DNA of 64,000 bases from assembly GCA_024613925.1 (NCBI GenBank), contig GCA_024613925.1_4713.1; one strand, 5' to 3'. Below the pieces are notes generated by a model. That model ran no database searches. It worked only from the letters and a program-made list of their open reading frames with translations, and was not told the origin of the DNA. The translations under genes and the position numbers were made by a program. Shown here in pieces: positions 27,119 to 29,883 of the stretch. Source of the stretch: a phage. Numbering within the stretch: position 1 is the first letter of the stretch; every line of letters starts with the position of its first letter.

Positions 27119-27625
27119 TCATGCTAAAATTCCTTCATTACCTAACAGTCGATTACGATGACGTCGGTACATTTGACAAAGTGTTGTGATTTGATAATGT
27201 TTGTTGTAACGTACCTCGATACGTTTTTGCACCTCTTTCCATGGAAGTTTATCGTATTGCCGATAACGATGGATTTCATTTAACATACGAAGACGAGTAG
27301 GATCGGTGTTCTTTATCGTCGTGAGCTTCACGCGTTGATATCCACGCTGTAGTCCCGATTCGGAATACGTGACGTCAAACTCATCCTGAATGATGGTGAT
27401 GATCTCCCGCCACCGACGGTTCTCGCCGTCACGTAAATGGACAACCCGCGATAAGATATCGTTCCGATTACGATGACTCAGTTTGATGTTAAGCATTGAA
27501 GCAATCGCGCTAATTGCTCTCTGACTCCGTCCTAACGCTTCACCGATTTCTTTCGATGTCATGACGCCCGCGTTTCGGCGTATGAATGCGATTTCGGTTG
27601 TTGTGTATTCTTTACCTGCTGCCAT
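27119..27625 (-). CDS. HTH DNA-binding protein, tandem paralog 1 of 6 (GcrA/Myb-like HTH)
   Basis: TTTEIAFIRRNAGVMTSKEIGEALGRSQRAISAIASMLNIKL; C-terminal W/YQR motif shared with neighbours. Confidence 0.55.
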   Translation of the reverse strand: MAAGKEYTTTEIAFIRRNAGVMTSKEIGEALGRSQRAISAIASMLNIKLSHRNRNDILSRVVHLRDGENRRWREIITIIQDEFDVTYSESGLQRGYQRVKLTTIKNTDPTRLRMLNEIHRYRQYDKLPWKEVQKRIEVRYNKHYQITTLCQMYRRHRNRLLGNEGILA

Positions 27626-28191
27626 TTCTTACCACGTGTGTTATAATAGTAACGCTGACAAAGATGTGTGTGACGATACTCCCGTTTGAACTCGACGCTG
27701 ATAATGCGAGCAACTTCTCTCCAGTTAACCCCTTCACGTCGAAGTGCTGTAATACGGTCTGAAATTCTGCACCATTCATCCGGGTCGTATCGTCGTAGCT
27801 TGAGTCGTCGTATTACGGAGGCGACACTCGCTCTCGATCGGCCAAGATGATTTGACAGCTGTTTAACCGAGTATCTGTGGATATTGTCACGAATATAGGA
27901 AATCTCGTTGTCCGTATATGCCTCATTGGTTCTCGACGAAGGGAACAGCATATACAGCTTATTCTTAATCGCGCTTTCTGTGCGTTGAAATACAGCAGCC
28001 AGCTCACTAACCGGTGGTCTGGGTATCCGGTCCGCGTAATCCTCGAGGCGTGAGAGTTCCTCATCTGTCCAGCGATGGTACTTGCGCATGGGCAACTCCT
28101 TTGTTTTTCGTGTAGTAACACCAACGTTGATACAACGCATGTTTATTCGTTGTAATCCCAAATTTAACAACAACGTCGTAGGTAATAACAT
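27559..28191 (-). CDS. HTH DNA-binding protein, tandem paralog 2 of 6
   Basis: WTDEELSRLEDYADRIPRPPVSELAAVFQRTESAIKNKLY plus second HTH; true start likely downstream (MRKYHRW). Confidence 0.55.
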   Translation of the reverse strand: MLLPTTLLLNLGLQRINMRCINVGVTTRKTKELPMRKYHRWTDEELSRLEDYADRIPRPPVSELAAVFQRTESAIKNKLYMLFPSSRTNEAYTDNEISYIRDNIHRYSVKQLSNHLGRSRASVASVIRRLKLRRYDPDEWCRISDRITALRREGVNWREVARIISVEFKREYRHTHLCQRYYYNTRGKKWQQVKNTQQPKSHSYAETRAS

Positions 28192-28564
28192 CCCAATTTT
28201 GGGTGACGTTAAGTCGTTCCGCGATAAACGCGATAATCGCTTCCCGTTCTTGCTTGGTTAGCGCACGACGAATTCCGTTAAGCCGTATAAACTGACGAAC
28301 CGAGTCATACGAACGGTTTAAATCGTACGCAATCTCCCGCAGCGATTTTTGTCTGATTACCGACTTGATGTATGTGCGTTCTTCTTCCGTATACGGCCGA
28401 TGCTTTTGACGTTGACGTATTCCCAAACGCCCCAGACGCGCGTCGACGCTGGCGCGTGTTCGCCCTGTCCGTTGCGCGATTTCATCAATCGTCATCGATG
28501 TGTTCAAATACAGATGCGTAACATCTTTCAGCTCGTCGTCACGCCACGGTCGAGATCGTCCCAT
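28061..28564 (-). CDS. HTH DNA-binding protein, tandem paralog 3 of 6
   Basis: WRDDELKDVTHLYLNTSMTIDEIAQRTGRTRASVDARLGRLGI; C-terminal ALYQRW. Confidence 0.55.
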   Translation of the reverse strand: MGRSRPWRDDELKDVTHLYLNTSMTIDEIAQRTGRTRASVDARLGRLGIRQRQKHRPYTEEERTYIKSVIRQKSLREIAYDLNRSYDSVRQFIRLNGIRRALTKQEREAIIAFIAERLNVTQNWDVITYDVVVKFGITTNKHALYQRWCYYTKNKGVAHAQVPSLDR

Positions 28565-29042
28565 CTTGTATCCCTCTTTTCTTTCTATGATGCCACCAAC
28601 GCTGATAGACAGCTTGCTTCGTACGTGTTATACCGAAATGCGCATTAACCCGTTCAGCAATGTGGTGCCAATCCTGCGTTTCTTCCAACAATGTATCAAC
28701 GAAGGCTATGAAGATCTTAGTATCAGCCTCGCTTAACCGCTTGAAACCATGACGATGTGCTATCGTTCTGATACTGTTTGGATCCCTGTTTAAATCGCGT
28801 GCGAGTTGTTTGTAACTTTTGTGTTTGCAGTGTGCTCTGATATATTCCAACTCATCGACGCTGAAACGTTTATGTGGTTTACGACGTTCAACATTTAAGT
28901 ATACCAACCTCGATTTAATTGCACCGTACGTTGTTTCCATGATTTCTGCGATTTCACGGATTTTTAATTTCGGGTGACGATAGTACAATTCCAGCAACTG
29001 TTCATCATCCTTACGATTCCATCGTCGTACTGGAGGTTTCAC
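28539..29042 (-). CDS. HTH DNA-binding protein, tandem paralog 4 of 6
   Basis: WNRKDDEQLLELYYRHPKLKIREIAEIMETTYGAIKSRL; C-terminal AVYQRWW. Confidence 0.55.
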   Translation of the reverse strand: MKPPVRRWNRKDDEQLLELYYRHPKLKIREIAEIMETTYGAIKSRLVYLNVERRKPHKRFSVDELEYIRAHCKHKSYKQLARDLNRDPNSIRTIAHRHGFKRLSEADTKIFIAFVDTLLEETQDWHHIAERVNAHFGITRTKQAVYQRWWHHRKKRGIQDGTISTVA

Positions 29043-29055
29043 AACGAGATTTCTC

Positions 29056-29523
29056 CTATTCTACGCGTTTTAATGCTTGAGTGTAGTAGAGGCTATGAAC
29101 ACCGCTTAACGTGTAATGGGTGTTAAATTCGTTATTGATGATATTCCGTATTCTCTCCCAGGTGTTATTCTCTTTTCTAAGGGTGTGTATTCGATAATAA
29201 ATCATCTCTCGACGTTGCGCTTTGCATGCAACAATGCCATAACGGTAGCAGAGTTTAGCGATTGCGTCCACGCTACGATTGAACATCGCTGCAGCTTCTT
29301 TTACGCTATGCGTCTTAAGATAATCAGCTAACATCACACGTTCTTCGAAACAGCAATAGCGGTGACGCGACATGAGTTTCCAGCGCTTGCGATTGCGGTT
29401 AATTCGACCTTGAACAGAGCCTTCTGTTCGGTCAAGCCGTGCCGCAATCTCTTGCATCGGGATACCGTTTCGGTACAGGGTAATCAATATCGCGTCTTCT
29501 TCGGGTGTCCAGTCCTTGACCAT
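29056..29523 (-). CDS. HTH DNA-binding protein, tandem paralog 5 of 6
   Basis: WTPEEDAILITLYRNGIPMQEIAARLDRTEGSVQGRINR. Confidence 0.55.
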   Translation of the reverse strand: MVKDWTPEEDAILITLYRNGIPMQEIAARLDRTEGSVQGRINRNRKRWKLMSRHRYCCFEERVMLADYLKTHSVKEAAAMFNRSVDAIAKLCYRYGIVACKAQRREMIYYRIHTLRKENNTWERIRNIINNEFNTHYTLSGVHSLYYTQALKRVE

Positions 29524-29535
29524 AGCGCCACCCCA

Positions 29536-29883
29536 TCAACGTCTTACTTTAAGCGGTATTCTGTTTCGAAAACAATAACACCGGATGGCGTGTACGCTAC
29601 GATTCATTATTTCAGCGATTTCATTTAGGGTATGCTTCTTTGCAAGCATAGCAACTCTGGTTCTTTCTTCTGGTGTGTAAACTCCCCCACGAGGAGGTAG
29701 GTCACCTCGTCGTTTCCTCAACTTGAGGTAACGTGCGCGAATAGAACACGGTGTCCGATCCATGCAACGCGCTATTTCTTTATAGCTCGCTTTTGGTGAT
29801 GTGCTAAGAATAAGTAGCAGTGCTTCATCTTCTTTATCCGTCCAACGTTTACCCATCTTTTCTATTCTCCTTAACTTTATCAA
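29536..29883 (-). CDS. HTH DNA-binding protein, tandem paralog 6 of 6
   Basis: [42 protein letters not shown]. Confidence 0.55.

Follow-up and report, generated by a model that had tools for sequence, protein, structure and literature searches.

Six tandem paralogs with multiple helix-turn-helix domains in a Goslar-like phage are candidate DNA-binding regulators remotely related to T5 D5

The stretch of phage DNA analyzed here, which we call the window (64,000 nucleotides [nt]; GenBank assembly GCA_024613925.1, contig GCA_024613925.1_4713.1), carries at positions 27119-29883 six consecutive open reading frames (ORFs), all on the minus strand, whose products belong to one helix-turn-helix (HTH) protein family. 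We number these proteins P1 to P6 (27119-29856, minus strand), and they correspond one-to-one to gp114 to gp119 of Escherichia phage vB_EcoM_Goslar (genus Goslarvirus), which shares 95.6% DNA identity with positions 27000-30000 of the window and has been placed by published papers in the nucleus-forming Chimalliviridae. On balance, our results incline us to the view that P1 to P6 are paralog-specific multi-HTH binders of double-stranded DNA (dsDNA) that regulate phage transcription and/or replication. Binding to dsDNA is strongly suggested; we infer the sequence specificity of the proteins, their action on phage rather than host DNA, the compartment in which they act, and the regulatory outcome. 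A preliminary description of this DNA had reported the tandem run of six minus-strand ORFs at this place, and the ORF listing bears it out.

The six proteins are paralogs far beyond chance, as had been claimed before: BLASTP links all of them (E values of 1e-5 to 2e-25, 23-37% identity), with neighbors as the closest pairs (P3/P4 at E 2e-25, P5/P6, and P1/P2), and when the 706 six-frame ORFs of the window are searched with a hidden Markov model (HMM) of P1 to P6, these proteins alone are recovered. The match that follows them has an E value of 0.09, and the window thus holds no seventh copy detectable with this model. At the DNA level, the B domains (see below) of P5 and P6 share a 57-nt stretch of 72% identity (repeat family D6). 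Alignment and HMM registers set three domain types of ~45-50 amino acids (aa), namely, A (consensus RWTxEEDxxLxxLY....xEIAxxxxRTxxSIxxRL), B (consensus YTxEExxYIRxxxxxxSxKEIAxxLNRSxxSIxxxxxRxGI), and C (consensus ...L....W..I...I..EFG..Y....L.QR..). The preliminary description had given each protein one or two HTH units plus a C-terminal segment, which is right for P2 to P5 (A-B-C, that is, two A/B units and one C) but not for P1, with one B and, by HMM, two C-type domains (B-C-C'), or for P6, with two units and no C-terminal segment (A-B). Likewise, the YQRW motif thought to be common to the C-terminal segments occurs literally only in P3 and P4, the others having QRYY, QRGY, or SLYY. The proteins and their domains lie as follows:

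P1: 27119-27625, minus strand, 168 aa, Goslar gp114 plus 21 aa; domain B at aa 4-49 (nt 27479-27616), C at aa 52-100 (nt 27326-27472), C' at aa ~108-166 (nt 27128-27304)
P2: 27559-28089, minus strand, 176 aa, Goslar gp115; domain A at nt 27937-28083, B at 27790-27927, C at 27634-27783
P3: 28061-28564, minus strand, 167 aa, Goslar gp116; domain A at nt 28415-28558, B at 28265-28402, C at 28106-28255
P4: 28539-29042, minus strand, 167 aa, GTG start, Goslar gp117; domain A at nt 28887-29033, B at 28737-28874, C at 28581-28730
P5: 29056-29523, minus strand, 155 aa, Goslar gp118; domain A at nt 29383-29520, B at 29227-29364, C at 29071-29220
P6: 29536-29856, minus strand, 106 aa, Goslar gp119; domain A at nt 29710-29853, B at 29551-29688, no C
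NAD-dependent DNA ligase: 29849-31918, minus strand, 689 aa; upstream neighbor in the same tightly packed block, outside the HTH family

Domains A and B are homologous to each other (hhalign probability 97%, E 1e-10), and C is only faintly similar to A/B in profile-profile comparison; searched alone against PDB and Pfam, it gives weak Myb/SANT and HTH_33 (transposase-type) signals at most. AlphaFold2 models of P4 and P1 have nine helices each, arranged as three three-helix bundles; the mean predicted local distance difference test score is 83 for P4 and 81 for P1 and the predicted template modeling score is ~0.5, so that the domains are confident and their relative orientation is undefined. 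All six proteins are small (106-176 aa, 12-20 kDa) and basic (isoelectric point [pI] of 9.7-10.5, 10.3 for P1; net charge of +11 to +15), and the short linkers that join their domains, those between A and B included, are mostly Arg/Lys-rich. In domain B, the segment predicted to be the recognition helix ranks among those best conserved within each ortholog group, to the point that P3 retains RSYDSVRQF and P4 retains RDPNS(I/L)R even in alleles of 39-52% identity, and the same positions differ between paralogs. Because these helices are conserved within ortholog groups and differ between paralogs, the six proteins probably have different DNA targets. This pattern, together with the purifying selection on all copies described below, supports the earlier notion of diversified DNA-binding factors.

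The HTH fold proposed for the repeats stands, as none of our results, profile searches included, places them in a non-DNA-binding fold. Fold and family matches include the phage small-terminase HTH, Reb1, Tc3, R2R3-MYB, Cef1, Rap1, and c-Myb. With the whole P4 model as query, the top Foldseek matches were multi-HTH proteins in complex with DNA (Reb1-Ter, SNAPc4-PSE, the Tc3 bipartite domain, and the Pax6 paired domain), all at weak E values, none of them ≤0.001. Across A and B, the best solved relative by sequence is Cbp2 (2LVS, E 5.7e-9), followed by c-Myb (E 7e-5). Several Pfam models are passed as well: Sigma70_r4_2 (PF08281, cut-off of 25.7 bits) by P5 (34.3 bits) and P4 (28.0 bits), with P3 just below (25.6 bits); HTH_28 (27.4 bits) and HTH_23 (26.8 bits) by P5; Myb_DNA-binding (33.1 bits, cut-off of 24.4) and Myb_DNA-bind_6 (33.6 bits, cut-off of 22.9) by domain A of P6; and Myb_DNA-bind_6 again by domain C of P4 (28.0 bits), P1, P2, P3, and P5 remaining below the Myb cut-offs. 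RefSeq accordingly names gp119 a "SANT/Myb domain-containing protein" and gp114 to gp118 "hypothetical." No NCBIfam model scores above threshold for P1 to P6, and the PADLOC defense models give marginal matches at most (E 8e-4 to 9e-3).

The evidence that points from DNA binding to regulation comes from coliphage T5. The PHROG 323 profile ("transcriptional regulator, D5-like") finds each of P1 to P6 over its positions ~92-270 of 319, with E values of 8.4e-10 (P1), 5.4e-19 (P2), 5.7e-18 (P3), 9.9e-16 (P4), 6.2e-18 (P5), and 2.8e-18 (P6), and T5 D5 itself (T5.118, 255 aa) is a full-length member (E 1.2e-71, positions 3-270). Conversely, D5 is the one ORF in 45 kb of T5 that the six-paralog HMM matches (E 2.7e-9 over three units), and hhalign against D5 gives probabilities of 87% for A1 (E 4e-6) and 68% for A2 (E 5e-5). 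What the proteins share is tandem copies of the A/B-type HTH unit (W/F-T-x-E-E ... EIA..xGR/K..x.V/I..), and P1 to P6 qualify as remote members of PHROG 323. According to the T5 RefSeq note, D5 is a DNA-binding protein that is needed for DNA replication and late transcription and is involved in the shut-off of earlier expression; the passage of PMC12630848 that cites McCorquodale 1979 gives it the same function in DNA binding, replication, and late transcription. The preliminary description had suggested transcription factors, a proposal that gains support, if indirectly, from this homology. The D5 architecture is nevertheless not that of P1 to P6: T5 D5 is the product of a single-copy gene and holds ~four A/B units and no C domain in one chain, whereas here six genes encode proteins of two or three domains, with one or two A/B units each and, in P1 to P5, a lineage-specific C.

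The gene order in T5 is likewise ligase and then D5, as D5 lies directly downstream of the split NAD-dependent ligase genes ligA and ligB (L018, 20365-23078). A general conserved module of ligase and D5-like gene was considered and rejected: the ligase of Serratia phage Moabite, the closest non-Goslar one (43%), has no HTH neighbor, and the "D5-like" gene of a Klebsiella N4-like phage has no ligase neighbor. Since the arrangement is not general, we treat the T5-like adjacency as a lead only, and it may be a coincidence.

We propose that each protein would bind dsDNA with helix 3 of each domain placed in successive major grooves, as in Myb R2R3, the Tc3 and Pax paired domains, Reb1, and archaeal Cbp1/Cbp2, while the basic linkers would follow the backbone or the minor groove, and that a composite site of ~12-18 bp would be read per protein. 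By analogy with T5 D5, the proteins would likely adjust when phage genes are transcribed and/or the phage genome is replicated, turning classes of genes off or on, for example, and in the array the Goslar lineage would have an accessory set of regulators of its own.

Several points weigh against this proposal. The homology with D5 is remote, with 10-13% identity in hhalign, and D5 is near-neutral (pI 6.3, against ~10 for P1 to P6); with four units per chain and without the C domain, it is therefore only a loose functional analogy. Searches of the window with Tandem Repeats Finder and for direct repeats and intergenic k-mers yielded no candidate binding sites, neither a repeat array nor an enriched motif being linked to this locus. 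SANT/Myb-like domains may also contact protein or RNA, as in the Cef1/Cdc5 matches. In a nucleus-forming phage, moreover, a protein reaches the phage DNA only after import into the phage nucleus, and a literature search returned no paper on Goslar gp114 to gp119 or on a Goslar Myb protein.

The relatives of the window allow us to ask how the array evolves. We compared 15 loci from Goslar-like genomes or fragments (L001-L004 and L006-L017; L005 is Goslar, a duplicate of L001). Gene order is fixed and orthology is 1:1 in every fetched locus, with P6 missing in L002, and the alleles fall into three classes:

Class I (window, Goslar, L006, L010-L015): P6 of 106 aa; gp120 present or absent
Class II (L007-L009, L016): P6 of 152 aa that includes a C domain; P3 and P4 71-75% identical to those of the window
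Class III (L002, L004, L017): P2 48%, P3 39%, P4 50%, and P5 70% identical to those of the window; P1 86-94%

L003 is mixed, with P4 and P5 like class III and a P6 of 152 aa as in class II. The 106-aa P6 is thus a truncated form of the 152-aa A-B-C ortholog of L003, L007-L009, and L016. P1 is the most conserved member, being 100% identical in Goslar and 86-97% identical in other relatives, and for P3, identity with the ortholog at the same position in L002 and L017 falls to 39%. The ratio of nonsynonymous to synonymous substitution rates (dN/dS) between the window and four relatives, from which the methyltransferase of three loci was excluded, is 0.05-0.08 for P1, 0.21-0.28 for P2, 0.12-0.17 for P3, 0.08-0.14 for P4, 0.11-0.17 for P5, and 0.12-0.23 for P6, compared with 0.05-0.16 for the ligase and other neighbors. 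These values (0.05-0.28) indicate that none of the six is a pseudogene and that all copies are functional, under purifying selection, and evolving somewhat faster than the ligase. The concern raised earlier that several copies might be pseudogenized fragments is therefore not borne out, P6 being truncated to two domains and otherwise intact.

Fast evolution by positive selection was considered and rejected, as dN/dS is below 0.3 wherever it is measurable. In L002, the genes flanking the array are ~84-98% identical (67% for a small ORF beside the ligase), P6 is missing, and gp120 is present; the synonymous divergence (dS) of its ligase is 1.6, which is near-saturated, and that of genes outside the block is 0.27-0.41. 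Because synonymous sites are saturated there too, the simplest reading of the divergence of L002 and L017 is that the block from ligase to P2 was replaced by a distant allele via recombination.

Beyond the Goslar-like phages, the distribution of the A/B unit and that of the array differ greatly. At high similarity, tblastn of P4, P5, and P1 against 50,697 phage records returned Goslar alone and no other chimallivirus, together with weak single-domain matches in N4-like Klebsiella phages and others. A scan of a genome collection for P1 relatives found none, IMG/VR and metagenome scans yielded Goslar-like contigs of ~240 kb only, and a word-indexed protein search with the six-protein profile gave 20 clusters, all of them P1, P3, or P4 orthologs, many on ~240-kb contigs and some labeled E. 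coli. An exhaustive HMMER search, on the other hand, found 15,956 representative proteins at E ≤1e-3, and the matches other than Goslar-type orthologs cover profile positions ~1-100 only, that is, the A-B part. Typical ones (P0021-P0167) are 300-900 aa long with 4-9 tandem A/B units; P0021 has nine such units fused to an N-terminal helicase, and P0022 is a 794-aa multi-unit protein on a 393-kb contig. Of the ten matches that we looked up, most have no source-given name. The A/B HTH unit is thus very widespread, and the A-B-C architecture and the six-gene array occur only in Goslar-like phages among those searched. Because P1, P4, and P5 matched no other chimallivirus isolate in tblastn, the array cannot be core transcription machinery, and the same result weakens the earlier idea that the proteins are specificity factors for the phage RNA polymerase.

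Known HTH systems resemble P1 to P6 in part. The window proteins share the fold of the N-terminal DNA-binding domain of Caulobacter GcrA (PDB 5YIU/5YIV), a protein that recognizes GANTC sites carrying N6-methyladenine, and P3 and P5 match the GcrA family of Pfam (PF07750) at 14.0 bits each, below its cut-off of 26.9 bits, the other four having no match. GcrA differs in its C-terminal sigma-70-interaction domain, which P1 to P6 lack, as the Pfam matches end at profile position ~60 of 155; in our proteins, the HTH domain is instead repeated and then followed by a Myb-like domain, and the C-terminal parts of P1 and P4 fold as three-helix bundles. With the Myb/SANT proteins (c-Myb R1R2R3, plant R2R3-MYB, Reb1, and SNAPc4), whose tandem repeats read consecutive major grooves, P1 to P6 have the tandem three-helix domains in common, but they do not keep the regular triple-Trp spacing, only some of their domains reach Myb thresholds, and they come from a bacterial virus, are 106-176 aa long, and lack activation domains. 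Archaeal Cbp1 (three HTH) and Cbp2 (two HTH, 2LVS) are, like them, small basic proteins made only of two or three tandem HTH domains. Cbp1 consists of three imperfect HTH repeats and binds CRISPR repeats, and both proteins recognize a specific dsDNA repeat (PMC3597662). P3 and P4 score 17.4 and 18.6 bits, respectively, against HTH_Cbp1 (NCBIfam NF040595, cut-off of 140) in weak, nearly full-length alignments; they are not members by score, have no CRISPR context, and come from a phage and not from a crenarchaeon. The 2LVS match shows homology of the HTH pair only. Sigma-70 region 4 (PF08281/PF04545) and the bipartite HTH domains of Tc3/IS630/Pax are further close systems. Neither Pfam nor NCBIfam gives a match to sigma-70 region 2 or 3 in P1 to P6, and with the NCBIfam sigma models, whose cut-offs are 43-323 bits, the scores stay at 16-22 bits. 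A sigma factor identity is ruled out by the missing regions 2 and 3, and a transposase identity (Tc3/IS630/Pax-type bipartite HTH) is ruled out by the lack of a transposase catalytic domain.

Among other explanations, we would entertain as a real if unlikely possibility that the proteins are host-takeover factors that act in the cytoplasm, where they would bind host DNA or promoters or mimic the contacts of sigma region 4 or GcrA with the host RNA polymerase and so switch host transcription off or divert it. Such factors could dispense with import into the phage nucleus, the A/B domains do resemble sigma-70 region 4 and the GcrA DNA-binding domain, and the array sits in a lineage-specific accessory region of almost all ORFans in which its central members are the genes most variable between Goslar-like strains, as expected of host-interaction genes. 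However, sigma region 2 and the sigma-interaction domain of GcrA are absent, dN/dS well below 1 shows no sign of an arms race, P1 is almost invariant, and the kinship with T5 D5 suggests that the proteins act on phage DNA. We are more doubtful that P1 to P6 coat DNA nonspecifically and cooperatively as chromatin-like proteins that, in the manner of an abundant early dsDNA-binding protein, organize or protect the phage DNA. The proteins and their linkers are indeed very basic, T5 D5 is a DNA-binding protein with a global effect on replication and gene expression, and Cbp1, also a three-HTH protein, is described in the title of PMC10883916 as forming chromatin-like structures with Cren7. Yet Cbp1 is itself sequence specific, and six long-diverged paralogs (23-37% identity) with helices that are paralog specific and ortholog conserved are hard to explain if binding is sequence independent.

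Many HNH homing endonucleases, methylases, and helicases of phages also bind DNA through the A/B unit, which raises the question of whether the array consists of domesticated or leftover modules of mobile elements, derivatives without a nuclease that would survive selfishly or shield target sites. P3, P4, and P6 match PHROG HNH-endonuclease families (phrog_1891, 8446, and 7545; E 1e-3 to 4e-9), a consensus-like repeat protein matches HNH and methylase genes in mycobacteriophages, P0021 joins its nine units to a helicase, and indels mark both flanks of the array (gp120 and gp112/gp113). This origin is nonetheless quite improbable as an account of the present array, which contains no nuclease domain and, with its fixed gene order, 1:1 orthology in relatives, and purifying selection on every copy, is not sporadic as mobile genes are; the genes are largely seen in all members of the lineage regardless of their homing-endonuclease content. 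It is scarcely probable that the domains are adaptors for protein or RNA, that is, SANT/Myb-like bundles contacting, for example, phage polymerases, the nuclear shell, or mRNA, because every one of the best matches by structure or sequence is an HTH domain bound to DNA, the pI is ~10, and the R(T/S)xxS(V/I)xxR signature of helix 3 is the DNA-contact motif of sigma region 4 and GcrA. Decay of duplicates with several pseudogenized copies, finally, is very nearly dismissed: P6 lacks the C domain of its 152-aa orthologs and L002 lacks P6 altogether, but all six ORFs are intact in every genome examined, have Shine-Dalgarno sites, and evolve at dN/dS values (0.05-0.28) like those of their neighbors, and for P1 to P5 decay is already refuted.

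We therefore return to P1 to P6 as paralog-specific regulators that bind phage DNA. They are remote members of PHROG 323, and since the literature search returned no paper on the Goslar genes, the array represents a new and uncharacterized case in which a known kind of DNA-binding protein has expanded in one lineage. Work on nucleus-forming jumbo phages in E. coli has Goslar as its model, and to our knowledge, no gene-expression regulators of these phages have been described. The text of a 2025 review of nucleus-forming phages contains none of the terms "transcription factor," "transcriptional regulator," and "helix-turn-helix," and it has "promoter" only in its reference list. It is tempting to speculate, although we think it improbable, that P1 to P6 are the first transcription/replication timing factors of a nucleus-forming phage, imported into the nucleus, each with its own sites, and switching expression from early (virion RNA polymerase) to middle/late (non-virion RNA polymerase), with the strain alleles of P2 to P5 rewiring the program. 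The array would matter mainly if it truly controls the temporal program of a nucleus-forming phage, and the finding would be routine if the proteins are ordinary accessory DNA binders. In either case, the locus offers six candidate DNA-binding regulators with a characterized distant relative (T5 D5), natural allelic variants, and a near-invariant P1, and it draws attention to an A/B HTH unit found in ~16,000 representative proteins, often in 4-9 tandem copies, most of the sampled ones unnamed at source.

The analysis also corrects gene models, above all the start of P1 and the status of P6 as a truncated form. The likely start of P1 is at 27625, whereas the Goslar annotation begins at M22. The first 21 residues complete helix 1 of the HTH domain and are conserved in relatives (P0013-P0015), the 168-aa ORF is 100% identical in Goslar (window 27562-27625; Goslar 119098-119160), and in L002 the long-form start of P1 overlaps a shorter P2 by 4 nt. 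Because the longer ORF is identical in Goslar and conserved in relatives, the deposited gp114 model is probably too short by 21 codons. Relative to the preliminary description, the likely start of P2 moves from 28191 to the ATG at 28089, which is preceded by the Shine-Dalgarno sequence AAGGAG, and that of P6 from the TTG at 29883 to the ATG at 29856. A Shine-Dalgarno sequence is recognizable at five of the six starts, and that of P1 (GGTAAG) is weak.

The array adjoins the DNA ligase gene, as had been noted, and the ligase overlaps the start of P6 by 8 nt; its product carries eight Pfam ligase domains (DNA_ligase_aden at E 2e-80, plus OB, zinc-finger, HhH, and BRCT domains). Adjacent genes within the array overlap by 26-67 nt, the longest overlap being that of the 3' tail of P2 with the start of P1 (67 nt), or are separated by gaps of 12-13 nt. 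Scans for sigma-70 promoters and terminators across 24.5-33.5 kb gave matches fewer than or no more than those in shuffled sequence, and no host-type promoter was detected within the array. Given overlaps of 8-67 nt, gaps of 12-13 nt, and no promoter or terminator signal above the shuffled expectation, the ligase and the six HTH genes seem to form a single block with translational coupling. P5 and P6 share a reading frame, with only a TGA stop and four codons between them (…KVRR* WGGA MVKDW…; window 29521-29538), and they do so in all class I arrays and not where P6 has 152 aa. A read-through fusion of P6 and P5 with the architecture A-B-A-B-C is conceivable.

Both flanks of the array vary in gene content. 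In Goslar, gp120 (235 aa, no Pfam match; L001 6832-7539) lies between the ligase and gp119. It is lacking in the window, where the junction is at 29849-29856, and in L012-L014, and it is present in L002, L010, L011, and L015, which makes it a presence/absence gene heading the array. On the other side, gp112 and the acetyltransferase gp113 separate the array from an S-adenosylmethionine-dependent methyltransferase gene in Goslar and most relatives; the window has in their place a 105-nt spacer (27014-27118) that retains ~90 nt of the 5' end of gp113. Upstream of the ligase, L003 and L007-L011 carry a D12-class (Dam-like) adenine methyltransferase gene, in many cases as two ORFs, that separates genes adjoining each other in the window and in Goslar.

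Elsewhere in the window, GC-rich hairpins on the minus strand are directly followed by (T)TATGCT or TATG at 1612-1661, 5918-6094, 10973-11127, 19724-19817, 40898-41052, 42222-42474, 59989-60145, and 60882-61000, and these look like terminator-plus-promoter units of the TATG type of phiKZ. No typical unit of this kind lies between ~27.1 and 34.9 kb, and the ligase and the six HTH genes therefore fall in one long promoter-poor block; the intergenic stretch at 34876-35065 has a hairpin followed by the variant GATACGCT. A 25-nt intergenic element, TCAC(C/G)TAAGTAATATAGCCGTGAAA, occurs twice (23113-23137 and 50603-50627, 96% identity), and its reverse complement contains TATATTAC, which resembles the early-promoter motif of phiKZ. 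The heptamer ATATTAC is ~9-fold enriched in intergenic DNA. Finally, positions 20991-21033 hold a perfect tandem duplication of the 21-mer GCCACATAACAAGCATAAAAA, of which an 81% copy lies 720 nt away (20270-20290).

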